Below, in pieces: positions 3,249-19,015 of a stretch of DNA of 64,000 nucleotides; positions within the stretch are counted from its first letter, which is position 1, and the number at the start of each line of letters is the position of its first letter. The stretch lies in the NCBI GenBank assembly GCA_048939015.1, contig JBHLPW010000001.1, positions 1 to 64,000 of the forward strand, read 5' to 3'. The translations under genes and the position numbers were made by a program. The notes beneath the pieces are model-generated. The model saw only the letters and a program-made list of their open reading frames with translations, did no database searches and had not been told where the DNA came from. This DNA comes from Promethearchaeota archaeon. GTDB taxonomy: Archaea; Asgardarchaeota; Lokiarchaeia; Sigyniarchaeales; SOKP01.

Positions 3249-3308
3249 CCACCAATATTTTGAAAATACCACTAAAATTTCAAATTTACCATTAAAATCA
3301 AATAAAAG
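3249..3308 (+). repeat. Three imperfect direct repeats with 20-bp period upstream of the giant membrane protein promoter
   Basis: ccaccaatattttgaaaata / ccactaaaatttcaaattta / ccattaaaatcaaataaaag starting at 3249, 3269 and 3289. Confidence 0.4.
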
Positions 3309-3410
3309 CTTTTAAGTAAGCTGTACAAACTAGTTATTAAACTCTTATATATTTATAAATTAATATTTACATTATTTTCACGAAAAAATTATAATTATAT
3401 TTATTGGGCG

Positions 3411-6400
3411 ATTGCAACGGATAATAATAATAATTCACAAGAACGGATTAGAAAAGCCACAGAAGTACTTCAGAAATTCTGGTGGTTTGCATTCTTTCTA
3501 ATTATTGCTCCATTAATAGTAGCAATAGTTACCTTCTCAATTTTTAATTTTGTATTAGGTAATGTACTCGTCGTAATATCTTTATCAGTTGTAAGCTTTA
3601 TGTTCGCTTTACTTTTTTTTTATAAAGCTTTTGATAAATACAGAAATAAGCCTTTTTTCCTTAATAAGAGTAATAATCTTACAGCAAGAATACACGTTCT
3701 TTTTATAATTTCTATCTTATCATTCATATCAACACCCATTTTTATTATAATATCAGGATTTGGTTCATTTTATCATCTTCCAGTTATAAGCTATTCAATC
3801 CTTTATTGTATTGTATATTATTATTACCATTTCCAACCAATAGATTTTTTTGACTTATCTAAGGAGGAATTCAAACATGCAGGCAGTTTTAACTTAATAG
3901 CAAAGCAACCGTATAATTTTTTCGTTGGTATTAATCATATTGTTCATATTATATTCTTAACTTTTACTGCTTATACTAATTTTTCTTGGCTTTTTGCTCT
4001 TACAACAAATTTAATCTTTTATTTCATCTTATTAAGATGGACAAAAAGTCAGGTTAAAAATATTAATAAATCGATAAGTGAAAAAGTTCCAGTTTTAAAA
4101 GAATTAACTGTTTTTAAAAGAAAATTTGTAGTTTCCATAATTGGTTTAATCTTCTTTTTAATGATTCAAATGCCGTTTGTAATAATTGTAATCTTCAGTT
4201 TATCAGGAGTCCGATATTCAAGCTTAGATATTATAAATAATTCTTTTTTGACGATAATTTTTATCTTATTTTACTTCAAATCTAGCTTTTATGTAAACTA
4301 TTATTATGGATCCAAATTCGATCTTTACGATAAACCTGGAAAATTAGCGGAATCTGCGGAGACAACTCCCTCTTTAAGTATAAAATATCAAAAATATAAT
4401 TCTTATATGTCAATTATTTTAATATTGCTAATCACATTATTCTCTTTTTTGATTCAAATTCCCTTATTAATGATTTTCATCCTTCCATTTATTTATATAC
4501 TTCTACATTATGAGCAGAAATACAATCTTTGTTCTAAGAGATATAATAAATCTGTAGTTTTATTGAATTCTATTGCTCTTTTGATTTACATTTCTTTTGG
4601 AATATTTCTGCCTGCAATAGAAACTATTTTATTAAATTTTCTTGCATTTTGCATTTCATTATATATTGTCTTACAGGTATTTGTTAAATTTGAGTATTTC
4701 AGTAAGGAAAATGTTTTAATAGTTCAAAATCTTCTCGCTGTCGCTAGTTTTACTTTATTAGTGTATAGCTTTTTTCCTATAATTGTTGATTATATATCTT
4801 ACACCGATCCAATTTTAAATCTCATTTCAAATATTCTTTTACATTCATTAATTCTGTCATTGGTTTTTTTAATCTCCCAATATATTATGGGAGTAAGGTA
4901 CTTTTATGGCAAATCTCCAAAATTATACAGAGTAGTAGTCTTAATAAATAGTTTTTTAGTTGAATTATTCATTTTTATCTTTATTTTATTTAGAATTTAT
5001 TTCTTAAGCGAATTAATTACTTTTCTACAAAGTATTCTTTTATCCTCTATATTATTTCCAATTTTTTTCATTTTTTTTCTTTACATAAATTATGGTTTAC
5101 ATGTATTTCCATTGAAATATTTCCTGAAATCATGTTATTTTACTCTCTGGATATTTTTAGTGGATTTTTTCACATCATTATTGATTCTCTCTCTATCTAC
5201 CACCTACTATATTATTATACCAATTGATTGTATTTTTACATCCATTCTATATTACTTCATCTCAAAATTTGGATTTAAAATGGAGAGAATAGATGAAAAT
5301 AGATTTAAAAAGCGAGTAAAAATAAATTCATATTTACTAACTATTGAGCTTTTTTCCCTATTTAGTTTGTTGTTTTTTAGTGCATTTAGAGCTTTTTCAT
5401 TGTTTGAGAATGTTATTTATTCAACATATTTATCTTTAGCAATAGTTTGTGGATTGATTAATCTATTTTCTAAAAAAGAGATATTTTCTGAAGATCTTTA
5501 TATCAAAATTAATACTTTTTTTCTACTATATACTTCCCTTATAGCGTTCTACTATTTTCTACTATTGACACGTAATATTCGTTTTGTTTATATTATACCT
5601 CTAATGGTTTCAAGTATAATTTTTTACGTACCGATTTTATATTTAAGGAAGAAGAACCTGTATCCTAAATTCATTAGTAAGTCAATTATAATTAATAGTA
5701 TCTTATTATCAACCACGATATCGTTAATTCCAACAATAACAGGATTAGAATTATACTTCTTAGGTATGTATTCCGATATAATTTTCTTAGTTATGACTGT
5801 AATAAATTTTACATTTTATATTTTATTAACAATTTCCACAATCGTTTACAATGTATTAAAAAAACCAGATACAATCGAAGAACGAGCAAAGCAAATTCAG
5901 AAGTTACAAATGCTTATATTATTTTGTTTAGGCGCAACAACAGTTTTTTATTATCCATACTTCTTATTATATAATTTCATCCAATATAATATTGTTATAC
6001 CTTTAATTTGTACTTCCTGTTTCCTATACATCCCTCTAAATATATCATATAAGAACAAAATTTTCAATCTTAAACATATAACTAAAATTATCATTTTAAA
6101 CACGTTATTTTTAACAGGTTTAGTCACTTTAATTCCAGTAATAATAGGACGGGATTTACTTTGGTTAGGACTTGTTGATGATTACAATATTTTTGTGTTG
6201 AATATTTTAAATTCCTCAATATATGTCTTCTATATATTTCTATTAATTCTAATTAATATATCTAAAAAGTTCAAGATTAAAGTAAAGTATATATTAAACT
6301 TAAATAGACTTAGAATTATTCTATTATTTTGTATTTCAGTTACAACTATTTTTTGCTATCCATTTTTCTTATTAATCAATACTCTTCATGGAATATTTAT

Positions 6401-9400
6401 TTCAATAATTTCCTTATTATTTTCTTGGTTCTTTTTATTTTATTATTCCTACAAGCAGGAATACTTCAATTTAGAATTTGTAAAGAAAATAACAATTTAT
6501 AATTTTATCGCCTTCTCACTTTTGATCATTTCTTTACCAACTATTATAGCTCTAGAATTAACGAGAATTGGATTAAGAGCAGATATAATACTTACAATAA
6601 CTATAACCTCATTTTTACTATTCAGTTTTCTCAGAATTTCTGAAGCCGTGAGCGAAAAGATCAAATTGAAAGAGAAATATGTTAAAAAATTTAAATTAAT
6701 AGGATTAATTTCTTGGTTTCTATTTTCACTTTTTATCTCTTATTACATAGCATCCATTTTTATTTTAGAATTAGTTTTCACTCCATTAACTAATCTAGTT
6801 TTAGCTTGTTCTTTCTTTATCTTCTTTATTTTGAGTATATATACGACAAATCTTATATCTAAAACTTTTCCAGAATATTCAAAAATTAAATATTTTCAAG
6901 ATTTAATCATCTACGGAATAATTATTTCAATTTCAAGTATTTTTACATTTTTAGGATTATCATCTGGGCTGTTTTCTTTTCTTATTTGGTGGCCATCGCT
7001 GCTAGCTATATCATTTTTAATTGGCTTTTTTCTTGCTATTTTTATTATATTATTAAACGCATTAGATAAGCAATTTCAATTATCACAAACTAAAACTGTT
7101 TCCAAGCTAGTCTCATGGTTAACCATAAAGATAATTATTTGTCTTTCAATAATTTCACTTATTGAATTTTTAGGGTTTTCCTATTCTATTATTAATAGTA
7201 TATTTTTATTCTGTTTAACGTTCACATTTTTTACACCTATAAGTCTTTATATATTGGAAAATTTGAGATATATTTCATCTGAAAAACAAATATTGTTGAA
7301 AAGGATCACATTAACAACCTTTATTGTATCAATTTTAACTGTATATGTTGAATTCCTCTACTATTCGATATATATAATCCCTATTTTTTATCTTAATCTT
7401 TTTATAATGATTACTGCTATCGCAGTTAATATCTTATTGTTTTTATATTATTATAGCTTAAGAATTAATAGAATAATTGAAGCAAAATCTGTTTTTGATT
7501 TATATAAAGTTTACTTCCCTTCCTTCTTCTTGTTTTTGAGTTTACTTTATTTTGATTCAGTTTTTTCAATTTTTCTAATTTTGATTACTTATTCACTAAT
7601 CCTTTCAAGGAGGAGTATTTTACCTAGTATTAGGTTTCTCTCATATTTCTTACTCAGTTATTATACTTTTATTGAAATCATAATTATTCTCAGTTCTTAT
7701 GGTATTATAGCAGGCTTTGAAATCGCAATGACAGGATTATACTTTATAATATACCTCTCATCAATGAGTGGAATCCTCATTTTCTCTATATTACTACATA
7801 CAAAGAAAAATAACAATCTTGAAAAATTTGCTCTTTATGCTCTTGTTTCTCTTTTGTCTTTTGTTTCATTGATGACTTACACTAATATACTACTTTTATA
7901 TAACATAACAATATCGCTTTTCGAAGTTTTGTTATTTTTAGGAATATTCTTTTATCATCAAAAAGATGAGCGTTACAAATGGTTCATCAAACCATGTATT
8001 ATTTTATTTGTGTTCGATCTTATCAGCTTTTTATCATACTCTTGGTTATTTAATAATCAGGTTTTCCTAGTCTACAGTTCAATTTTAACTTTCACATTAA
8101 CATTAACTGTTACAACACTGGCATTTATTCTAATATATAACTCATCTCCAGCTAGATTTAGGAAAAGATCTTTTTTTATTGCTTTATCGTCATTAATAAG
8201 TTCCTTTCCTACTTTCTTATATTTTATTATCATAGCATCATTATCAATGCCTATTTTTTCAATAGTTCCTTTAATATTCTCAATAGACATTGGAGTCCTA
8301 TTGTTTTATCTATCCATTGGAATATACCAATGGAAGATATCATGGGCAATCTGGAAATCTGGATGGTATGCGTGGAATATATTACCATTTGTAAACTTCT
8401 TTTTAATTTATCAAAGTCTTACAGGAATAGATGTTTATACGAGATCATTACCAGTATTCAACGCAAGTGGTTCATTTATTTTATCAATAATTATTTGCTC
8501 ATTATTTTTCTTTCCTGTGGTCTATACAAAAATCAAGAAATACTTTTCTACTATAGTTTTTATTATCTGGGGTGAAAGCTTATTTTTACTTTATTGGGCG
8601 AGCTTTAATTTGTTTACAACAGATCTTTGGTTAAGAAATTTTTCTTTTATTTTGTTTTCAGTTGTCTTATTGATACCTTTGTTAATAGCATTTAAATATT
8701 GGAAATTAGTATCTATTCTTTGGATATTTCCTTTAACAGTAATTAATACAATATTTCTATTTTTCTATCTGTTATCGATCGGTATCTCATTGGGGATGAC
8801 TATTTCATTAGTTATTTTAGCAATAGGGTTATTTTTCATGGTATACTCATTTTTTCCAAATATTAGATCAATTGGAGTTATTTTAATAAGTGCATACTTC
8901 ACAACTCTACTCGGCATTTTCTTAACAGTCTATTTCATTTTGTATTTGATTTTATTAAATCCAATTTTTTCAATAAACCTTAGCTTTCTTGTCGTAGGTT
9001 TCAGTCTCTTTTCTTCGAAATATGTTGAAGTTCCTAAAAGACTAATAGATATGTGCCTTTCCTGGATTTTAATTTTTAATTTATCATGGTTTACTTTTAA
9101 TACTTTCAATTTATTTCCCGGTTTATTTCTATTTGCTCTCTCATTAGCAATTACTGTATTTGGTTGTTCATTTTTTATATTTAATCGCTATAAAATGAAA
9201 ATTTCTCTTAATAAGATATTTCCATTTTTAATGGTAGCATTAGGAACGTCTTCTTCAATCACATCTTTAATTTATAGTATTTTTAATACCTCTCCTGGAA
9301 TATTAATTTCTATATTTTCTTCAGTGTTTATTATATTTTTATATTATATTTTCATTGAATATCGCTATTTTCTTTGGTTTCTTATTCCAATTCCTATAGC

Positions 9401-12350
9401 AACTCTTATATTAGAAGGGATGTTAACAATTGAAGTAATTGAACCTTTTTGGCTTTTAACTTGGGCTATGCTTTACCTTTTCTCATTTCAAATAATATTT
9501 AATCTATTTAAAAAGTCAATAAAGAAAGAACCTCAAGAAATAAAAAATAGCATTTTTAAGCTCTATCAAGATGAAAATCAAGTAAATTTACTCAATCTTA
9601 CATGCTTCTTTTTAAATTCTATAATCTTTTCCTTATTCATAGCAATAATTATTCCACAATTACTACCATATTTAGTATTCTCTCATATTCTATTTGTTTA
9701 TCAAATCTGTGATTTTCTAATAATCTGGCCAATCTTATTTTTAATTTGTATGAAATATATCGAAAAGTCAAAATTAGATATAAAAGTAAAGGATATATTG
9801 CAACTTTTCAACAAAATCAGTTCAATTTTATATATTTTGATTCCAATTGCCGTAAGTACCAATCTTCTTCTTTATATGATTCTAATTAATTCAAGCTTGA
9901 CTTCTTCAATTTACACATTAATATTAATGATTAGTGGTTTAATTTTCATAGAAGTATCTATTATAGACAGGAATGTCCTGCATTTCTTACTAGATGCCAC
10001 CCAGAACCTTTTTACTTTATCATCATGGATAATCTTAAGTAATGGTTTCTCATTATTCTTATTTTTATTTCATTCAAACTTATTCCTATTAATTTTAATG
10101 ATTTCACTTCTAGGACTTATTTCCTTTCATTTCTTATCTAAATTTGATGTTTCTAAACAAATTATATCTAAAGGTCGTTTGATATTAATATATAATTCAT
10201 TTATTTGGAGTTCTTTATATCTAGCATCTTTAATCTCTGATTTATTGGTCCAAGTTTTTGAAGGCTTAATAGGATTTCCCTACTTTTCTTTATTATTCCA
10301 GAATACATCAATTCTATTATTTATTTTAAGTGTTATTTTCGTTAAAATTGAAAAAAATTTAAAAAATAGAATCGAATTTATCCTTTTCATTATTTTCCAG
10401 GGATTGCTTGCTATAAATTTAATTTTTATATTTTACATATATGCTATTTTACACTTTTTATCAATTAATTTCGTGATCTTTATAGAAGTATGCCTTATGT
10501 TCATATTTGTTTACTATTTCGATATTATATTTGCAAAGCAAAAATATCCGAATTTTAAACTAAAAATGCATTCAATTTTGATTTTGATATTATATTGCGA
10601 AATAAGTATTATGAGTTATGGTCTATTGTATGCTGTCATAGGGATTTATGAAAGTCTGATTGTAGCTCTTTCTATACTATTGATTTTAACTATGCTGGAT
10701 ATTTATTCATTTAAGAAGATAAAAATAGGTTATGCACGTTTAATTCATACCATCAGTTTCTTTACAATTTCGATAATGATACTTTTACTTATATTTAGCT
10801 TTATCTTTCAATTTCCATTCTTACTTGGTTTAGGAATTTTTATTTTAGTAATTATGCAATTTTATACTAATTATTCTCTTTTTAAATCATTGGAAGAGAT
10901 ATTTCCTAAAGGTCAAAATACTTATAAAGAAGCTCAATTAATTATTCAACAATTATTAGGAACCGTTTTCTACGGTACTATATGCCTATTTTTAGCTCAA
11001 GTTTTAATTTTTTATAACGTGGATTTTCTATTAATACTATTAATATTAAGTCTTATAATCCATGGATTAATGATTATAGACAAAATTTCATTTAAATTTC
11101 TACGTGAAATTGCGAATTATATTCAAACAATCTCTTGGATATCTATTATGACATTTACATCGACATATTTTATTTGGTTATTTTATACATATTTCGGTAC
11201 TTTCTTTTACAGAGCAATTCCTATTATTGTTATTATCCTTCTCCTTGAGTTTGCCTATCTCATCAAATTATTAGCTTTCTGGAAATTCGTTGCCACTTAT
11301 AAGGAGAAGATTAAGTTCTTACTGGTAATAATTGCGTATCTTAATTTTATAACGTGGCCGTTATATTTTGCTTCTTTGAATCCATTTCACCTTCTAAATT
11401 TAGTGCTAGCTTCATTTAGTATTATGTTTTTCTTAAGTTTAATTGATAGAACTTTGAAGATACGTTCCCGTGAATCCTTAAGATCTTACTCCTTTCTCAT
11501 AGTTGGAATATTATTATCAATAGATTTATTTATTATATTTCTTTTAAACGTCGGGCTTAATGTTTTCTTAAGTTTTAGTATTTCTTCCTTAATTTTTGTA
11601 ATATTTCTAGGAATAATTATAAAACCATTTAAAGGACACTCAGCTGGAGCTCTAATATTTTGGATCGTAATATTTCTTCTATTAAGTGTAATAATATATA
11701 ATGTATCATTATCCTTAATCGCGGCAGGAATATTTTTTGCCTTTACAATTTTAATTTATCCCTTTGTATTTCTGTTGGAGGAACTTAAAGAGTTAATTAA
11801 TAAAATCGTTGGAATTATTACAAGATTTTTTACACATCTCAAAATTGTAATTAAGAATATGTTTATCAGAATGTTTATTTTATTCAAAAAGTATTTTAAA
11901 TTCATTTGGATCCTAATTTGCGCAATTATCGCTTCATTTTGCGGTATTCTATTTTCTGATTTGATTCTTGGACTATTAAATCCATACCACTCTATTCTTT
12001 TAGTATTCCCTGTTTTTGGGATATTGTTTTCTCTTAAACCTTCAGAAAAAACTGAAGACGTGGATATAATGTTTAGAAGAAGAATGTTACGTTTAGTTAC
12101 TAGCTGGGGTAGCATAATAATAATTTTGTTCTCCTTTATGTTTGTTCAAAATGTAGAGCCTTATTGGTACGCATTAGCGGTATGGATTTCAATTTGGATT
12201 TTGGGAGCAATATTATTGCCTTATATCATTTTCAAAGAGAGAAGGGAAAATATTTCGATTAAATGGAGATTTTATACCTTAATTATATTGATATCAATGT
12301 TAATCTTATTTGGTATTATTGTAGCACTTCAGTTCTATCTGAATGCTTAA
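3411..12350 (+). CDS. Giant polytopic membrane protein (~2,980 aa), function unknown
   Basis: Uninterrupted 8.9-kb ORF of hydrophobic ~20-25 aa segments separated by short Lys-rich loops. The frame is open upstream of the track ATG (3600) and adds IATDNNNNSQERIRKATEVLQKFWW... plus two more TM segments; ATT at 3411 is the inferred start. Confidence 0.8.
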   Translation: MATDNNNNSQERIRKATEVLQKFWWFAFFLIIAPLIVAIVTFSIFNFVLGNVLVVISLSVVSFMFALLFFYKAFDKYRNKPFFLNKSNNLTARIHVLFIISILSFISTPIFIIISGFGSFYHLPVISYSILYCIVYYYYHFQPIDFFDLSKEEFKHAGSFNLIAKQPYNFFVGINHIVHIIFLTFTAYTNFSWLFALTTNLIFYFILLRWTKSQVKNINKSISEKVPVLKELTVFKRKFVVSIIGLIFFLMIQMPFVIIVIFSLSGVRYSSLDIINNSFLTIIFILFYFKSSFYVNYYYGSKFDLYDKPGKLAESAETTPSLSIKYQKYNSYMSIILILLITLFSFLIQIPLLMIFILPFIYILLHYEQKYNLCSKRYNKSVVLLNSIALLIYISFGIFLPAIETILLNFLAFCISLYIVLQVFVKFEYFSKENVLIVQNLLAVASFTLLVYSFFPIIVDYISYTDPILNLISNILLHSLILSLVFLISQYIMGVRYFYGKSPKLYRVVVLINSFLVELFIFIFILFRIYFLSELITFLQSILLSSILFPIFFIFFLYINYGLHVFPLKYFLKSCYFTLWIFLVDFFTSLLILSLSTTYYIIIPIDCIFTSILYYFISKFGFKMERIDENRFKKRVKINSYLLTIELFSLFSLLFFSAFRAFSLFENVIYSTYLSLAIVCGLINLFSKKEIFSEDLYIKINTFFLLYTSLIAFYYFLLLTRNIRFVYIIPLMVSSIIFYVPILYLRKKNLYPKFISKSIIINSILLSTTISLIPTITGLELYFLGMYSDIIFLVMTVINFTFYILLTISTIVYNVLKKPDTIEERAKQIQKLQMLILFCLGATTVFYYPYFLLYNFIQYNIVIPLICTSCFLYIPLNISYKNKIFNLKHITKIIILNTLFLTGLVTLIPVIIGRDLLWLGLVDDYNIFVLNILNSSIYVFYIFLLILINISKKFKIKVKYILNLNRLRIILLFCISVTTIFCYPFFLLINTLHGIFISIISLLFSWFFLFYYSYKQEYFNLEFVKKITIYNFIAFSLLIISLPTIIALELTRIGLRADIILTITITSFLLFSFLRISEAVSEKIKLKEKYVKKFKLIGLISWFLFSLFISYYIASIFILELVFTPLTNLVLACSFFIFFILSIYTTNLISKTFPEYSKIKYFQDLIIYGIIISISSIFTFLGLSSGLFSFLIWWPSLLAISFLIGFFLAIFIILLNALDKQFQLSQTKTVSKLVSWLTIKIIICLSIISLIEFLGFSYSIINSIFLFCLTFTFFTPISLYILENLRYISSEKQILLKRITLTTFIVSILTVYVEFLYYSIYIIPIFYLNLFIMITAIAVNILLFLYYYSLRINRIIEAKSVFDLYKVYFPSFFLFLSLLYFDSVFSIFLILITYSLILSRRSILPSIRFLSYFLLSYYTFIEIIIILSSYGIIAGFEIAMTGLYFIIYLSSMSGILIFSILLHTKKNNNLEKFALYALVSLLSFVSLMTYTNILLLYNITISLFEVLLFLGIFFYHQKDERYKWFIKPCIILFVFDLISFLSYSWLFNNQVFLVYSSILTFTLTLTVTTLAFILIYNSSPARFRKRSFFIALSSLISSFPTFLYFIIIASLSMPIFSIVPLIFSIDIGVLLFYLSIGIYQWKISWAIWKSGWYAWNILPFVNFFLIYQSLTGIDVYTRSLPVFNASGSFILSIIICSLFFFPVVYTKIKKYFSTIVFIIWGESLFLLYWASFNLFTTDLWLRNFSFILFSVVLLIPLLIAFKYWKLVSILWIFPLTVINTIFLFFYLLSIGISLGMTISLVILAIGLFFMVYSFFPNIRSIGVILISAYFTTLLGIFLTVYFILYLILLNPIFSINLSFLVVGFSLFSSKYVEVPKRLIDMCLSWILIFNLSWFTFNTFNLFPGLFLFALSLAITVFGCSFFIFNRYKMKISLNKIFPFLMVALGTSSSITSLIYSIFNTSPGILISIFSSVFIIFLYYIFIEYRYFLWFLIPIPIATLILEGMLTIEVIEPFWLLTWAMLYLFSFQIIFNLFKKSIKKEPQEIKNSIFKLYQDENQVNLLNLTCFFLNSIIFSLFIAIIIPQLLPYLVFSHILFVYQICDFLIIWPILFLICMKYIEKSKLDIKVKDILQLFNKISSILYILIPIAVSTNLLLYMILINSSLTSSIYTLILMISGLIFIEVSIIDRNVLHFLLDATQNLFTLSSWIILSNGFSLFLFLFHSNLFLLILMISLLGLISFHFLSKFDVSKQIISKGRLILIYNSFIWSSLYLASLISDLLVQVFEGLIGFPYFSLLFQNTSILLFILSVIFVKIEKNLKNRIEFILFIIFQGLLAINLIFIFYIYAILHFLSINFVIFIEVCLMFIFVYYFDIIFAKQKYPNFKLKMHSILILILYCEISIMSYGLLYAVIGIYESLIVALSILLILTMLDIYSFKKIKIGYARLIHTISFFTISIMILLLIFSFIFQFPFLLGLGIFILVIMQFYTNYSLFKSLEEIFPKGQNTYKEAQLIIQQLLGTVFYGTICLFLAQVLIFYNVDFLLILLILSLIIHGLMIIDKISFKFLREIANYIQTISWISIMTFTSTYFIWLFYTYFGTFFYRAIPIIVIILLLEFAYLIKLLAFWKFVATYKEKIKFLLVIIAYLNFITWPLYFASLNPFHLLNLVLASFSIMFFLSLIDRTLKIRSRESLRSYSFLIVGILLSIDLFIIFLLNVGLNVFLSFSISSLIFVIFLGIIIKPFKGHSAGALIFWIVIFLLLSVIIYNVSLSLIAAGIFFAFTILIYPFVFLLEELKELINKIVGIITRFFTHLKIVIKNMFIRMFILFKKYFKFIWILICAIIASFCGILFSDLILGLLNPYHSILLVFPVFGILFSLKPSEKTEDVDIMFRRRMLRLVTSWGSIIIILFSFMFVQNVEPYWYALAVWISIWILGAILLPYIIFKERRENISIKWRFYTLIILISMLILFGIIVALQFYLNA

Positions 12351-12508
12351 TTGGGACTCTTTGATTTTATTTTATTATTATGTTGATAGTTCATAAAAAA
12401 ATGTGAAACCTTTAAATATATGTTAAAATGAACTATTATTTGAAAATCTAAAAATAAACATACATATTAAATTTAAAGAAAAATTTTGAATTAGAAGTGA
12501 TCTATAAT

Positions 12509-13942
12509 ATGGAATCTTTAACAAAAAGAATTTTAGCTATTGTTATTATTGCTGTTATAGGCGTAGGCATCGGAGTTGGCGCTTGGTATTTTCTATTAGC
12601 ACCTGGAGCAGGCGAATATGCGTGGAGTGCTAGTGATTGTCCAGGAGCTCCCACTACTATTAATGCGAGTCAAATAATCAAAATTGGCTGTGCTGGAGAT
12701 ACAGGAGAAATTCAAGGTGATGCTAATTATGAAGGGGCTTGGTTTGCAGCAAAAAGAATAAATGAAGCTGGTGGCGTTGTAGTTAATGGTACAACATATT
12801 ATATTGGAGTCACACAAGAAGATACTGATGAATCTAATCCAAACCTCGTAACTTCAAGAGGAGTGGCTGCTGCTCGAAGGCTTATTTATAACAAAAAAGT
12901 ACAGTTTGGAATTGGTGGCTTTCGATCAGAAGCATTATTAGCATATCAGGAAGAATTTATGGATGCAAAAATGATTTTTATTGATACTGGAGCTGCAACT
13001 GATGATTTCTGTACAAATGTTAGGGATGATTATGATACTTATAAATACTTTTTTAGATGGATGCCAATTAATTCCACTTCATTAGGAGGAGAAATATTAG
13101 GAACCTTAGCTGCCTTTATTGTATCCATGAATCTTACTTATCCTAACCATGATGTTAAAGAAATTGGAATCCTAGCTGAAGATCTAACTTGGGTAGATTC
13201 TTTAGTAGGTGCTATTCAATTATATTTACCCTATTACACAAATTTAACCGCTAATGCATTAACCAATAAATCATGGTACCCAACAATTTTAACTCCGATA
13301 AAGTATGATGTTACTCTTAGTGCCACAGATATGAATACACACCTTCAAACACTTCAGACCGCGGGTGCAGATATAGTAATTCCTGTTATATCTGCTCAAG
13401 GTGGAATTTTAATGATGCAACAATATGCTCTTAACCAATATGATTATCTCATATTTGGGATCGATGTTCAGTCACAATTAGATACATTTTGGACTTCAAG
13501 TGGAGGGGATTGTCTTTATGAAACAATTATGCAAACTTTGCATCAAACTAACAAAACAGAAAGCTCTCTTGAGTTTTGGAGTGCTTTTATAGCACAATTT
13601 TCCCACGAACCACTTTATATTGCATGTGGTGCTCATGATGCTGTAATGGGAATTGTAGATGCTATAAATGCAACTCAGTCTTTTAATGCAGATGCAATCA
13701 TAGCCCACTTTGAAACGTGGACAAAAGCGAATCCTCACCCTGGTGTAAGTGGAGGAGGTGCATGGTGGCCTGGTACTCATGACCTCGTGGAAGGATACCC
13801 ATATGGATATACATTGTGGTGCCAATGGCAAACTGGTGGCGCGAAGAAAGTTATTCCAGCTCCAAACCTTTATCCTAATTGGATGGCAACGGGAAGTTAT
13901 TTGATTGCACCATGGGTCAACGCTACATGGTATGTAAGTTAA
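12509..13942 (+). CDS. livK: Branched-chain amino acid/acyl-type ABC transporter substrate-binding protein, membrane anchored
   Basis: N-terminal TM anchor, Peripla_BP type-1 pattern (IKIG...GAWFAAKRINEAGGV, IGGFRSE), many N-x-S/T sequons, upstream of livHMGF. Confidence 0.85.
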   Translation: MESLTKRILAIVIIAVIGVGIGVGAWYFLLAPGAGEYAWSASDCPGAPTTINASQIIKIGCAGDTGEIQGDANYEGAWFAAKRINEAGGVVVNGTTYYIGVTQEDTDESNPNLVTSRGVAAARRLIYNKKVQFGIGGFRSEALLAYQEEFMDAKMIFIDTGAATDDFCTNVRDDYDTYKYFFRWMPINSTSLGGEILGTLAAFIVSMNLTYPNHDVKEIGILAEDLTWVDSLVGAIQLYLPYYTNLTANALTNKSWYPTILTPIKYDVTLSATDMNTHLQTLQTAGADIVIPVISAQGGILMMQQYALNQYDYLIFGIDVQSQLDTFWTSSGGDCLYETIMQTLHQTNKTESSLEFWSAFIAQFSHEPLYIACGAHDAVMGIVDAINATQSFNADAIIAHFETWTKANPHPGVSGGGAWWPGTHDLVEGYPYGYTLWCQWQTGGAKKVIPAPNLYPNWMATGSYLIAPWVNATWYVS

Positions 13943-14146
13943 AATCTAAAAACCCAAATTATTTTTTTTTTATTTTTTCACTCATTTCATCTCAATTTCT
14001 ATTATAATAATTCTATTAGGATGTTTTTTTATTCCTAGAAATGCCAAAATTGTTAAAAAAGTCAAAATGATCAGTTTTATAAGAAATGACATAAAAATAA
14101 TATTAAGATAAATTTAATATGTAAATTTATTTTCGATTTGATTTAT

Positions 14147-15028
14147 ATGAGCACTGAGATTATTAATTTTTTATTTAATGGAACTTTAAATGGTGCTGTC
14201 TTTTCATTAGTAGCACTAGGTTATTCACTGACATATGGTGTTGGACATATTATGAATTTAGCTCATGGAGCTTATTTTATGTTAACAGGATACTTTCTTT
14301 TATGGTTTCGAGACGTCTTGCCAAATCTTGAATTTTTCAATGTTGTTCTTATATTAATTATTATCACCGTAATTGGAGCCCTTACATATTTACTGCTCAT
14401 TAAACCTCTGCAAGATACAAGTGTTGGAGTTGTATTAGTTACTTTTGGTTTAGCTTTCTTCCTAGAACAAGTTGTTTTAATTATATCCGGAACAGAATCG
14501 TATTCTATTAATGATTATAGATTGACTACGGGAACAACAAATTTTTTTGGATATTCTATAATTAATCAATATCTTCTTCTTATTATTGTATCGTTACTTA
14601 CTGTATCATTATTTGCTTTATTTATTAATAAATCAAAATTAGGTAAATCAATTAGAGCTGTTTCTCAAGATAGAGAAGCTGCAACACTCATGGGGATAAA
14701 TGCTAATAGAATTCTTTTATATACCCTCATGATTTCAGCATTCTTAGCTGCAATAGCTGCTGTTTTTTACTTACCTGCAGCCGCACTTAATGGTCCTTCA
14801 ATGGGATGGGAATTCTTAACTAATTCATTTGCTGTAGTAATTTTAGGAGGAATGGGAAGTCTTGTAGGAAGCGTAGTAGGAGCATATATAGTAGGGTATG
14901 TAACAAGTTTTACAAGTATTTATATTCCTTATGGTCCTTCGTGGGCTCATATAATTCCTATTATTGTAATTATTGTAATGCTTATAATCAGACCTAGAGG
15001 GTTATTTGGTAAGAAAGAACTTAAATAA
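14147..15028 (+). CDS. livH: Branched-chain amino acid ABC transporter permease
   Basis: LVALGYSLTYGVGHIMNLAHG, GKSIRAVSQDREAATLMGIN, VILGGMGS, RPRGLFG. Confidence 0.93.
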   Translation: MSTEIINFLFNGTLNGAVFSLVALGYSLTYGVGHIMNLAHGAYFMLTGYFLLWFRDVLPNLEFFNVVLILIIITVIGALTYLLLIKPLQDTSVGVVLVTFGLAFFLEQVVLIISGTESYSINDYRLTTGTTNFFGYSIINQYLLLIIVSLLTVSLFALFINKSKLGKSIRAVSQDREAATLMGINANRILLYTLMISAFLAAIAAVFYLPAAALNGPSMGWEFLTNSFAVVILGGMGSLVGSVVGAYIVGYVTSFTSIYIPYGPSWAHIIPIIVIIVMLIIRPRGLFGKKELK

Positions 15029-15054
15029 TAAATAAATTTAGAGGTAAAATAAAA

Positions 15055-16107
15055 ATGGTAAAGGACAGGATAAATGAAAAAATAAAGAATTTTCCAGGTT
15101 ATTTAAAGTATTGGGTGAAATCATTTAGTGGGGGTTTAACCCTAGTATGTTTAATTATTCTTGCTATTATACCCTTATTGTCTAGAAATGAAAGTTTTGT
15201 AAACTTTTTCTTGCCTAACTTTACGTTAGCAATGATATTTGCCATTTTTGCTGCAAGTTGGGATCTTCTAACTGGTATTTCAGGACAAGTTAGTTTTGGT
15301 CATTCAATCTTCTTTGGAATTTCTGGTTATCTATGTGCCTATTTAATTAGTTATCAAAATTTTTCTATTTGGCCTGCTATTTTTCTTGGTGCGATTGGTG
15401 CTGTTGTGTTTGGATTATTAATCGGAGTACCCTGCTTAAGACTAAAAGGACCATATTTAGCATTGGGTACTCTTGCATTTAGTTTAATTTTATTAAAATT
15501 GTTTTTATTGGGATCACTTGCTCATATTTTTTTTGGTTCTGAAGGAATTTCTGCTCTTCCAAAATTATCTGAAGATCCTGTAATTGAATATTTTATAATA
15601 TTTATTTTTATGATTATCTCTTTTGTTGTTATTATTCAAATCAGTAAATCAAAATTAGGCACAATTTTCAAATCCATTCGTGATGATGAAACAGGGGCTG
15701 GTGCATCAGGAATTAACACTACAAAATATAAAATTTACGCTTTTATGATAAGTTCGTTATTCGCAGGATTTGCAGGCGCTTTCTATGCTTTATATAATAC
15801 TGCTGTAAATCCAACAGGTAACTTTGGGACTGTTATTTCATTTTTTGCTATCCTTATGGCATCATTAGGGGGATTAACAACCATTACTGGAGCAGCATTA
15901 GGTTCTTTTTTCTTCATTTTTTTGGAATATATTCTTATCGAAATTGGGGTAATACAAATTGGAACTTTTGTGTTTGATGTTGGTATGTGGAAATTTGCAA
16001 TATTTGCGGTTATTTTAATTGTTGTTGTTAGATTCGCAGAACAGGGTATTTTAAGACCTATAGTAGAACATCTAAGAGATTTATGGGATGTATTAATGGG
16101 AAGATAA
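15055..16107 (+). CDS. livM: Branched-chain amino acid ABC transporter permease
   Basis: WDLLTGISGQVSFGH, LRLKGPYLALGTL, SIRDDETGAGASGINT. Confidence 0.93.
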   Translation: MVKDRINEKIKNFPGYLKYWVKSFSGGLTLVCLIILAIIPLLSRNESFVNFFLPNFTLAMIFAIFAASWDLLTGISGQVSFGHSIFFGISGYLCAYLISYQNFSIWPAIFLGAIGAVVFGLLIGVPCLRLKGPYLALGTLAFSLILLKLFLLGSLAHIFFGSEGISALPKLSEDPVIEYFIIFIFMIISFVVIIQISKSKLGTIFKSIRDDETGAGASGINTTKYKIYAFMISSLFAGFAGAFYALYNTAVNPTGNFGTVISFFAILMASLGGLTTITGAALGSFFFIFLEYILIEIGVIQIGTFVFDVGMWKFAIFAVILIVVVRFAEQGILRPIVEHLRDLWDVLMGR

Positions 16108-16148
16108 TATTTAAATAAATAATAAAGAACATCATGGTGTAATAAATT

Positions 16149-16889
16149 ATGGGAGTAATTCTAGAAGTAAAAAATTTAACAAAAAAATTTGGTGGTTTAA
16201 CTGCTGTCAATGATTTTAGTTTTGAGATTAAAAGGGGTGAATTTGTAGGACTAATTGGTCCAAATGGAGCAGGTAAAACTACTGTGTTTAACCTAATATC
16301 TGGGTTTGAAAAACCGAGTTCGGGTAGTATTCGGTTTGATGGAATGAATATAACAGGATTTAGACCTTTTAAAATTGTTAATTTGGGAATTGCAAGAACT
16401 TTTCAATTAGTTAGATCTTTTAAGTTTTTAACTTTGTTAGATAATATTTCGGTATCTTGTCTTTCAAAAAGAGGAAAGCAAATTTCAAAAAGAATCGGAA
16501 CTGATGAGCATGCAAGCTCAATTCTTGCAGATGTTGGACTTGTTGATAAAGCTAGAATTCCTCCAATTATTTTACCTCATGGTGATTTGAGAAAATTACA
16601 AATTGGTAAAGCTCTTGGCACCAACCCTCAATTACTCCTTCTTGATGAACCGTTTAGCGGTCTTTCTCATGAAGAAAGTATAATTATAACAGAATTAATT
16701 AAAAAATTACATGAGGATGGTGTCACCATTTTTATGACTGGTCATGTTTTGCGTGAGCTTATGACATTAGTACCGAGAGTAATTGCGATGCATCAAGGTA
16801 AATTTATTGCAGATGGCCCTCCAAGGGAGGTTGCTAATAATAAAATTCTTATTGAAGCATATTTAGGAAAAGGTGAAGCATTTGCTTAA
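16149..16889 (+). CDS. livG: ABC transporter ATP-binding protein
   Basis: FGGLTAV, Walker A GPNGAGKT, GIARTFQ, LLLLDEP. Confidence 0.95.
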   Translation: MGVILEVKNLTKKFGGLTAVNDFSFEIKRGEFVGLIGPNGAGKTTVFNLISGFEKPSSGSIRFDGMNITGFRPFKIVNLGIARTFQLVRSFKFLTLLDNISVSCLSKRGKQISKRIGTDEHASSILADVGLVDKARIPPIILPHGDLRKLQIGKALGTNPQLLLLDEPFSGLSHEESIIITELIKKLHEDGVTIFMTGHVLRELMTLVPRVIAMHQGKFIADGPPREVANNKILIEAYLGKGEAFA

Positions 16890-17586
16890 AATAAAAAAAA
16901 TATATCATTATTATGGAAAAGCAAGAGCTCTTGAAGAAATAAATTTGGATTTAAAAGAGAAAGCTCTTGAGTCTGTTATTGGCCCTAATGGAGCTGGAAA
17001 ATCAACTCTCCTTAGAGTCATATCAGGTTTGGAAGAACCTGACAGAGGAAAAATAGAGTTTTTAGGTGAGAGAATTGACGAGTTAAAACCTCATAGAATT
17101 GCTAGAAAAGGAATCTCTCATTGCCCTGAACGACGTAGATTATTTTACGATTTAACAGTTTCTGAAAATTTAGATATGGGTGCTTACACACTTAAAGATC
17201 GTAGTAAAGCGAAAGAATTAAGAAAATTTGTTTTTGAAATTTTCCCACGACTTAAAGAAAGGAAAAAACAACGAGCTGGTACTTTAAGTGGTGGTGAACA
17301 ACAAATGCTTGCTATTGCACGGGCTTTAATGGCTAATCCAAAACTTCTTCTTATGGATGAACCTTCATTAGGGTTAGCTCCAAAGATTAAAAAAACAATA
17401 TTTGATGCCATTGAAAAGATAAAACAAGAAGGTACAACTTCTTTATTAGTTGAACAGGACGCAGTACTAGCTATGAATATCTCAGAATATATTCATGTTC
17501 TAGAGGAAGGGAAAATTGAAATGAGGGGAACAAAAGAAGAATTAGAAAAAGAACCTCGTATAAAACAAGTTTATTTAGGAATTTAA
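16882..17586 (+). CDS. livF: ABC transporter ATP-binding protein
   Basis: GPNGAGKS, PERRRLF, LSGGEQQMLAIAR, LLMDEPSLGL. The track GTG at 16873 lies inside the SD GGTGA, so TTG at 16882 is preferred. Confidence 0.93.
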   Translation: MLKIKKIYHYYGKARALEEINLDLKEKALESVIGPNGAGKSTLLRVISGLEEPDRGKIEFLGERIDELKPHRIARKGISHCPERRRLFYDLTVSENLDMGAYTLKDRSKAKELRKFVFEIFPRLKERKKQRAGTLSGGEQQMLAIARALMANPKLLLMDEPSLGLAPKIKKTIFDAIEKIKQEGTTSLLVEQDAVLAMNISEYIHVLEEGKIEMRGTKEELEKEPRIKQVYLGI

Positions 17587-17596
17587 GGTGATTTAA

Positions 17597-19015
17597 TTGT
17601 CAGCTCCTTTAGAAAAATTATTAAGAGACGCTAGAATCGATCTGATCTTAGCGAGGATAGAAAAAGATGAATCTGTTATAAATGAAGTAATTGGACATTT
17701 AAACAGTGAGAGTAGGTCTGTCAAATTTAATTCTATACATGTTTTAGGAGAAATTGGTCAAAAATCAATAGATGCTGTTTCAAAAATAACTAGTTGCTTG
17801 GAAGATCAAGATTGGAGTATTTGCCGGGAGGCTGCTCGAACATTAGGTAAAATTGGTAATTCTGCTAAAGATGCAGTACCTCAATTATCACAAATGTTAA
17901 ATGATAAAGAAGAATCAATTAGAACAGAATCCGCAATTGCTCTTGGAAAAATACGTAATTCTAGTCCTGACTCAATCTCTCTTCTAATTAAAGCGTTAGA
18001 TGATAAAAGTGAAATTGTAAGAACTGAAGTAGCAAAAACTCTAGGTGAAATAGGATCAGATGCTTTTGACGCCATCCCTTATTTAATGAATTCCCTTAAA
18101 GATATAAGCTGGACAGTAAGAACTGCTTCAGCTCAATCGATTAGTCTTATTGGAAAAGGATCTGTGAAGGCAATTCCTAGTCTAATATATGCTCTTGAGG
18201 ATCAAGATTGGAGAGTACGTTATCGGGTCGTGAATACTCTTGCGGAAATTGGAGATCCTACTATTCCAAGTCTATTAGAAGCCATAGAAAGTAAAAATAA
18301 GATAGTAAGAAAAGAAGCCGTTGATGCTTTAGGAGAAATTAAGACTTCAGATCCTAAAATAATTGATACTATCTCAGAATTATTACATGATAAATCTGAA
18401 ATGGTTAGGGGAAAAGCAGCCGATGCTCTTAGAAGTATTGGTAAACCTGCTGTTCCAAAAATAATAGAAATTTTTGATAGTTTGAATACAAAAATGAAAA
18501 TAATCATTCTTTCTGCTTTGGGGGGTATTGGGTCTGAAGCTAAAGAGGCTATACCACTTATTATTAATTGTTTAATGATACCTGAACAGGAAATAGAATA
18601 TATTCCTTCTTTTATTAATAAAATAAAAAGAGCGATAACAACTTTTTTAAAAGATCCCCGAAAAAAGGGAGCTTCAATTCGAGTAGAAGCAGCAAGGGCA
18701 TTAGGAAAAATTGGATTTGATTCAGAAGATAGTGTTCATGCTCTTGAAATTGTTTTAAACGATCCCCGAAGTAGTGTCCGACGTGAAGCTGCACTTTCTT
18801 TAGGAAAGTTAGGAGCTAAAAGTGCTGTCTCCTCTCTAATAAAGGCTTTAAAGGATGAAAATCGAGATGTTAGGTGGAGAGCCTCTGAGGCATTAGGAAC
18901 TCTCGGAATAAATACAGAAGAGGTTATTTCAAATTTAAATGCTTTGGTTCATGATAAATGTGATTATGTTTGTGAATCAGCAATTCTCGCTCTCGATAAT
19001 TTAACAGAAGATTAA
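17597..19015 (+). CDS. HEAT/PBS-lyase repeat protein
   Basis: About 13 repeats of L-x-D-x-x-x-x-VR-x-x-AA-x-ALG-x-IG; SD GGTGA upstream. Confidence 0.88.
   Translation: MSAPLEKLLRDARIDLILARIEKDESVINEVIGHLNSESRSVKFNSIHVLGEIGQKSIDAVSKITSCLEDQDWSICREAARTLGKIGNSAKDAVPQLSQMLNDKEESIRTESAIALGKIRNSSPDSISLLIKALDDKSEIVRTEVAKTLGEIGSDAFDAIPYLMNSLKDISWTVRTASAQSISLIGKGSVKAIPSLIYALEDQDWRVRYRVVNTLAEIGDPTIPSLLEAIESKNKIVRKEAVDALGEIKTSDPKIIDTISELLHDKSEMVRGKAADALRSIGKPAVPKIIEIFDSLNTKMKIIILSALGGIGSEAKEAIPLIINCLMIPEQEIEYIPSFINKIKRAITTFLKDPRKKGASIRVEAARALGKIGFDSEDSVHALEIVLNDPRSSVRREAALSLGKLGAKSAVSSLIKALKDENRDVRWRASEALGTLGINTEEVISNLNALVHDKCDYVCESAILALDNLTED

Follow-up and report, generated by a model that had tools for sequence, protein, structure and literature searches.

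The giant gene and its reading frame

The window analysed here is a stretch of 64,000 nucleotides (nt) at the start of contig JBHLPW010000001.1 from a Promethearchaeota archaeon (assembly GCA_048939015.1). It carries a giant gene whose product, P0001, is a membrane protein of 2,979 amino acids (aa). A single plus-strand frame is open from the stop before 3306 through the stop at 12348–12350 (window 3306–12350), and the remaining five frames contain 142–410 stops over the same DNA. The features of the gene and its product are listed in Table 1.

The earliest ATG, GTG or TTG in this frame is the ATG at 3600, which lies 189 nt past 3411 and inside the second conserved helix. When four upstream regions were aligned, the ATT at 3411 fell base for base on the ATG of three orthologous loci, and Met occupied the first alignment column in 89% of 81 orthologues. 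The N-termini of the orthologues read M-x-S-x-N-S-x-N-S-Q-E-R-I-R-K-A-T-E, and translation of the window from 3411 gives I-A-T-D-N-N-N-N-S-Q-E-R-I-R-K-A-T-E. Since a start at 3600 would delete the first conserved helix and truncate the second, the gene was taken as 3411–12350. The ATT may be a rare initiator, a strain mutation (a single-base change at the ATG) or a base error. The columns around the TATA-like element are conserved in the four aligned upstream regions, which is consistent with a role as the promoter. A minus-strand open reading frame (ORF) of 119 aa (11756–12115) is nested entirely in the giant gene and is probably spurious.

Table 1. Coordinates of the giant gene, its upstream element and the regions of its product
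Feature	Residues of P0001	Window position	Strand	Remarks
TATA-like element TTTATAAA		3352..3359	+	~52 nt 5' of the start; within an AT-rich block conserved with orthologous loci
Gene for P0001	1–2979	3411..12350	+	ATT start 3411–3413, stop 12348–12350, 2,979 codons
N-terminal module	1–320	3411..4370	+	8 helices; begins with the conserved cytoplasmic motif SQERIRKATEVLQKFWWF
Three tandem 4-helix cassettes	700–834, 835–968, 969–1104	5508..6722	+	~134 aa each; self-comparison, HHalign
Conserved core	1450–2030	7758..9500	+	21 helices; conservation maximum of the family
Trp-rich signature	1633–1666	8307..8408	+	Cytoplasmic interface; Y-x(7)-W-x2-SW-x2-W-x2-G-x3-W-x3-P-x2-N
C-terminal region with older ~250-aa repeats	2120–2740	9768..11630	+	HHalign
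Long amphipathic helix	2789–2830	11775..11900	+	In the 42-residue Lys/Arg-rich cytoplasmic loop 88
Last five helices and tail	2831–2979	11901..12347	+	Conserved tail motif SIKWRFY; C-terminal alignment

Predicted topology of P0001

Ile, Leu and Phe make up 45% of the residues of P0001. Kyte–Doolittle analysis of P0001 alone gave 83 segments at a threshold of at least 1.6, and hydropathy averaged across 81 aligned orthologues gave 93 membrane segments with an unbroken loop register. The 80–90 helices estimated by eye in the original prediction were thus of the right magnitude and slightly low in number, and the far smaller count that would have spoken against that prediction was not found. Helices assigned by DSSP in the AlphaFold models were matched by hand to the hydropathy segments, and all agreed in the core (21/21) and in the cassette region (13/13). 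A density of about one helix per 36 residues marks the family, P0001 included, and all of the 97 homologues showed one hydrophobic segment per 32–41 residues with no loop longer than 138 aa.

The loops of P0001 alternate strictly in charge. Family-averaged Lys and Arg residues numbered 189.5 in the even-numbered loops versus 11.0 in the odd-numbered loops. In P0001 itself, the 47 inner loops contained 190 of these residues and the 47 outer loops 9, and the alternation was perfect over the 94 loops. Lys or Arg occurred in every inner loop but in only 7 of the 47 outer loops. In 200,000 permutations, no imbalance as large was obtained. The inner loops have a median length of 20 aa and a maximum of 44 aa, whereas the outer loops have a median of 8 aa and span 3–22 aa. 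From this alternation and the positive-inside rule, the N-terminus and all Lys/Arg-rich loops were assigned to the cytoplasm. This assignment fits a CxxC...CxxC zinc ribbon found in the Lys/Arg-rich loop 4 of the orthologue P0095 (residues 159–194; Pfam Zn_ribbon_3, E 3e-4, below the curated cut-off). P0001 is accordingly predicted to comprise about 93 helices paired into about 46 transmembrane hairpins, with the N-terminus inside, short outer stubs and longer Lys/Arg-rich inner loops. As the original prediction had stated, the protein is nearly all membrane. No loop exceeds 44 aa, and neither Pfam nor NCBIfam recognised a family in it at E ≤ 1.

Of the 79 polar positions conserved in at least 85% of sequences, cytoplasmic loops contain 58, helices 18 and outer loops 3. 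The outer face is not only short but almost without conservation. Conserved polar residues deep in the membrane are E518, N1662, Q2330, E2397, H2551 and D2705, and among the conserved polar residues of P0001 no series of buried charges across the modules was seen.

Selection and distribution of the family

The extreme composition of P0001, the low G+C content of its DNA (24–27%) and the non-canonical ATT start would also suit an artefact, be it a frame open by chance in AT-rich DNA, a chimeric assembly or a gene in decay. This explanation, to which we give practically no weight, is refuted by several lines of evidence in addition to the stop counts and the perfect charge alternation. The first homologue search detected 97 homologues of 1,660–3,750 aa. 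P0008, P0010 and P0011 are colinear with P0001 over 99–100% of its length and nearly equal in size, the contigs of orthologues reach 1.8 Mb, and an orthologue of 4,296 aa is encoded in a closed genome of 4.36 Mb. Comparison with the gene of P0003 (80% amino acid identity) gave a ratio of nonsynonymous to synonymous substitutions (dN/dS) of 0.144 at a dS of 0.76. In blocks of 300 codons the ratio was 0.11–0.24 along the whole gene, with its peaks (0.21–0.24) in the region of residues 2120–2740. The core gave 0.09–0.17 against 15 other loci, with synonymous sites saturated in one further comparison. An assembly chimera or a lack of purifying selection, either of which would have undermined the original prediction, is thus at odds with the colinear orthologues and the low dN/dS.

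The assembly that encodes P0001 (4.86 Mb) has a single copy of the giant gene. To survey its distribution, a profile of the core was searched in 301 genomes of the phylum, and 57 of them matched. All of these belong to two families of one order, with 50 of 68 and 6 of 7 genomes matching, respectively; the 28 other families, represented by 225 genomes, gave no match. Within the main family, one genus is without the gene in 5/5 genomes, the three listed first being 98–99% complete. When the core profile was run exhaustively by HMMER against 1.84 billion representative proteins, 53 proteins were obtained, all of which were members of the family or fragments of them. The homologues came under the source names Lokiarchaeota, Lokiarchaeia or Promethearchaeota. 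A small number bore submitter labels of other Asgard groups, which were not borne out by the genome survey. The sequences show a real orphan family, single-copy and under purifying selection, that is restricted in these surveys to one order of Loki-type Asgard archaea.

Members of the family are 2,500–4,300 aa long. Those of the sister family are the largest (4,200–4,300 aa, ~120 hydrophobic segments), and their BLAST similarity to P0001 is confined to the core and the C-terminal module. Residues 1531–1922 matched the 4,296-aa orthologue with 30% identity (E 8e-34), and residues 2748–2961 matched the sister-family orthologues with 26% identity. P0134 (1,497 aa) was considered as a minimal form of the protein and rejected, since its frame runs off the end of the contig, which leaves the protein truncated. 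In the genome of P0001, the C-terminal profile also gave a weak match on contig 90 (2804–3004, locus L024; E 8.5e-4, 19.9 bits) within an open frame of 1,001 aa, which may be a chance match or another polytopic protein.

Modular architecture

The giant protein is modular, with a separable N-terminal module of 8 helices, an expandable array of 4-helix cassettes, a conserved core, a region of older repeats and a C-terminal module. In two other lineages the N-terminal module is encoded by a separate ORF that overlaps the main ORF in another frame. One locus (L018) has ORFs of 317 aa (6061–7014) and 2,712 aa (7001–15139) with an overlap of 14 nt, and the other (L022) has ORFs of 313 aa (5070–6011) and 2,534 aa (6001–13605) with an overlap of 11 nt. 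The N-terminal ORF of L018 is 51% identical to residues 1–301 of P0001. These overlaps may reflect either a conserved gene split or a programmed frameshift.

The degenerate internal repeats noticed in the original prediction proved real in the cassette array, where the three units were supported by a diagonal score of 110 (versus 68 or less in shuffles) and an HHalign probability of 99.8%. In each cassette, helix 3 is kinked at a conserved Pro, and an outer-face G-x-E/D-L motif comes after this helix. The AlphaFold model of residues 690–1110 had a predicted local distance difference test (pLDDT) score of 92 and a predicted template modelling (pTM) score of 0.74. The cassette region measures 153, 283, 420, 555 or 794 aa in orthologues, corresponding to 1, 2, 3, 4 or about 6 units. 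P0003 has one cassette more than P0001, and P0005 and P0006, which are 90% identical, differ by exactly one 134-aa unit. The conservation minimum along the chain (residues 800–950) lies within this copy-number-variable array.

Deletions relative to P0001 cluster at about 70, 140 and 270 aa, which correspond to 2, 4 and 8 helices, and even numbers of helices were removed in 78 cases versus odd numbers in 21. Insertions were evenly divided (29 versus 28), their parity being blurred by noisy helix calling in single sequences and by alignment edges. The strict hairpin charge pattern and the hairpin-sized deletions and insertions suggest that the helices are inserted pairwise.

The alignment of the core contains 21 invariant columns. 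The invariant residues include W1648, G1651, W1655, P1659, N1662, P1702, W1720 and P1756, and further W1764, W1771, F1782, F1815, P1816, Y1829, P1993 and Y2022. The first five of these belong to the Trp-rich signature and are invariant in 81 sequences. The AlphaFold model of the core had a pLDDT of 82 and a pTM of 0.71, and the Trp-rich signature was its least confident stretch (pLDDT 53–78).

Older repeats were sought by pairwise HHalign comparison of alignment windows. Residues 2158–2245 matched 2409–2488 with a probability of 97% and residues 2366–2440 matched 2614–2689 with a probability of 49%. A link reaching outside this region connected residues 1101–1250 with 2205–2340 (90%). The same comparison detected no repeats in the first 600 residues. 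Outside the cassette array, repeats are detectable only at the profile level or not at all.

The long amphipathic helix that had been noticed near the C-terminus is borne out by hydrophobic moment analysis, since residues 2789–2830 hold the window with the highest moment in P0001 (0.63). E2790 and K2793 in this helix are each conserved in 99% of sequences. A complex prediction with two copies of residues 2690–2979 scored 0.00, which is neutral on oligomerisation.

Searches for relatives and comparison with known systems

No Pfam-A family matched the whole of P0001 by hmmscan at E ≤ 1, including Piezo, Proton_antipo and the DUF2339 and DUF2157 families to which the original prediction had drawn attention, and no NCBIfam family matched at the same threshold. 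A characterised transporter family matching over the full length was looked for in these searches and was likewise not found. Pfam searches with 48 core sequences and three orthologues gave nothing relevant. Sequence profiles of PDB entries gave no match to the core or the cassettes at E ≤ 10. The sole weak row for the C-terminus was a PRA1 family protein (8hf2_A; E 0.025, 17 bits), which was judged a chance match because the alignment was biased and hydrophobic. With the AlphaFold models of the core and the cassettes, Foldseek gave no match below E 0.02 and VIA-align (wide) gave no Z above 9.3, which is within the background of that tool for helical proteins. Searches of the ESM Atlas by shape and by features revealed no relative above background, and free-standing relatives of the cassette among shorter proteins were only contig-end fragments of the giant family. 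The giant family is without a detectable relative by sequence or predicted fold. Literature searches found no paper describing it, and a survey of huge proteins (PMC11573180), which refers to 23 Asgard proteins of more than 5,000 aa, makes no mention of it.

P0001 meets its closest likeness in the other Lokiarchaeial orthologues (P0003–P0098), an unnamed family of giant hairpin proteins. It is colinear with them and shares the N-terminal motif, the Trp-rich core signature, the KWRFY tail and the hairpin architecture. The orthologues differ in length and cassette number, some are split into two genes, one has the zinc ribbon, and they start with ATG rather than ATT. To our knowledge, no characterised protein approaches 93 membrane spans in one chain.

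Among known systems, P0001 invites comparison with the Piezo channels. Piezo1 and Piezo2 have 38 helices per subunit and nine 4-helix units per blade. P0001 resembles them in its very large size and polytopic build, in the repetition of a 4-helix unit and in having a cytoplasmic amphipathic helix close to a conserved C-terminal module, and it could occupy a similarly large membrane footprint. P0001 might thus be a giant channel or mechanosensor in which the helical bundles act as a lever or blade and the core or the C-terminal module forms an oligomeric pore. Consistent with this, the strongest amphipathic helix directly precedes the last five conserved helices, conserved polar residues are found deep in helices of the core and of the C-terminal third, and confidence in the model is low over the invariant Trp-rich stretch, as is often the case for mobile or partner-dependent elements. 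However, kinship with Piezo, which the original prediction had brought up for comparison, gained no support: P0001 has no Pfam Piezo domain, and no Piezo chain appeared among the top 50 rows of Foldseek or VIA-align for either the core or the cassette model. P0001 has about 2.5 times as many helices, and its family is restricted to one archaeal order. An extracellular cap is missing, since no outer loop exceeds 12 aa in the stretch of the last five helices or 22 aa in the chain as a whole. Repeats were detectable in no more than 3 of the roughly 23 stretches of four helices, with no 4-helix periodicity at the profile level in the remainder of P0001, and there is no chain of buried charges through the modules. 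We regard a channel or mechanosensor as rather unlikely.

The top VIA-align rows for pieces of both models were NuoK/ND4L and MrpF, small 3-helix subunits of complex I and Mrp antiporters (PDB 3rko_K, 7d3u_F, 7tgh_4L), with Z of 8.2–9.3 over 77–87 residues. These values are the usual background of helical bundles and cover 3 of the 93 helices. P0001 has neither a Pfam antiporter domain (no Proton_antipo match) nor more than a few scattered conserved polar residues in mid-membrane, whereas a relationship to complex I or Mrp would imply conserved Lys/Glu at that depth in each 14-helix module. The best, still weak, Foldseek neighbours of the cassette model were soluble alpha-solenoids and designed helical repeats (PDB 7rdr, 5cwm and TPR arrays; E 0.02–0.3, probability up to 0.97). 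They share with the cassettes the stacking of hairpin repeats and a variable repeat number, which is compatible with a solenoid-like array. The TM-score was, however, only about 0.2, and these proteins are soluble, whereas the helices of P0001 are hydrophobic spans with a strict in/out charge pattern.

A possible membrane-embedded platform

We infer, with less than even confidence, that P0001 is most likely a structural platform or ribbon embedded in the membrane, and not an enzyme or a classical transporter. Such a platform is favoured by the absence of a soluble domain and of any known catalytic or transport signature, by the likeness of the cassette model to helical-repeat arrays, and by the location of the sole conserved exposed surface on the cytoplasmic side. 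Moreover, whole-hairpin cassettes are gained and lost between close relatives, which is more in keeping with a scaffold than with catalytic machinery whose parts are tightly coupled. In such a platform, function or assembly would centre on the conserved core and the C-terminus, partners would dock on the cytoplasmic face alone, and the cassette array would set the size. By a rule of thumb, the helix body would cover about 90–130 nm2 and might locally stiffen, organise or curve the membrane.

Several observations weigh against a platform. The conservation of the core is far above what a passive scaffold would need, as its invariant Trp, Pro, Gly and Asn residues attest, and the buried polar residues (E518, N1662, Q2330, E2397, H2551 and D2705) could, together with the core, form a transport or catalytic site. 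The many conserved cytoplasmic Lys and Arg residues may be due to the positive-inside rule alone. The invariant Trp-rich interfacial element is modelled at low confidence, and no conserved operon partner was found across the compared loci. Functions that cannot be named here keep about a third of the probability.

A more specific form of the idea, put forward in the original prediction, is that of an intramembrane solenoid, which might shape the membrane, act as a scaffold or sense tension. P0001 would then be a ribbon of about 46 hairpins that sets or senses curvature, for example in thin protrusions, that has its length tuned by the number of cassettes and that docks cytoskeletal or trafficking proteins on its cytoplasmic face. 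A repeat architecture is supported for the three cassettes by the model with a pLDDT of 92, the weak helical-repeat neighbours in Foldseek and a copy number from 1 to about 6; in most of the chain, no 4-helix repeats are detectable. We consider a curvature-setting solenoid doubtful. If it were true, it would represent a membrane-shaping machine without counterpart among characterised proteins.

Cultured cells of Lokiarchaeia have an unusual membrane architecture. If P0001 is a structural membrane element, it would point to a new way of organising membranes among the archaea most closely related to eukaryotes, and should it be a channel or translocase, it would found a new superfamily. Either way, so giant a chain puts the insertion and folding of such proteins to the test.

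Genomic neighbourhood

The giant gene is preceded by genes for an aminotransferase and a GH4 glycosidase and followed by a Liv-type ABC transporter operon and genes for a HEAT-repeat protein and an AMP-binding enzyme. Three other lineages show the same succession of MFS, aminotransferase, GH4 and giant gene, and their giant proteins are 35–37% to 71% identical to P0001 by BLAST; the downstream side differs. In another lineage, hexuronate genes are present upstream instead.

This neighbourhood bears on the possibility that the core acts as an enzyme in the membrane or translocates lipids or glycans (polymerase-, ligase-, flippase- or scramblase-like), the rest being an elaborate anchor. The recurrent GH4-containing order and the upstream hexuronate genes would suit such a function, as would the invariant polar and aromatic residues of the core, and a partial orthologue, P0141, was named 'O-antigen polymerase' by its submitter. 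This name was not reproduced, however, since searches of Pfam and NCBIfam at E ≤ 10 assigned P0141 to no family, and no polymerase or glycosyltransferase family was matched by any of the 48 core sequences. GT-C and Wzy enzymes work on the outer face through large outer loops. No such family was found for P0001, P0141 or the 48 core sequences at E ≤ 10, and P0001 has no large outer loop with conserved catalytic residues, its outer loops being 22 aa or shorter with only 3 conserved polar residues, versus 58 inside. In addition, the conserved order includes unrelated genes and may reflect collinearity only. An enzyme or translocase therefore seems improbable to us.

The gap of 263 nt and the TATA-like element of its own suggest that the giant gene is transcribed separately, and the synteny is read as genome collinearity rather than as an operon.

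On the downstream side, the Liv-type operon (12497–17586, plus strand) is complete, with genes for a branched-chain amino acid binding protein, two permeases and two ATPases, and is missing from this position in more distant relatives. It is followed at 17597–19015 by the gene for a protein of 472 aa that consists entirely of HEAT/Armadillo-type repeats (HEAT_2, E 8e-82).

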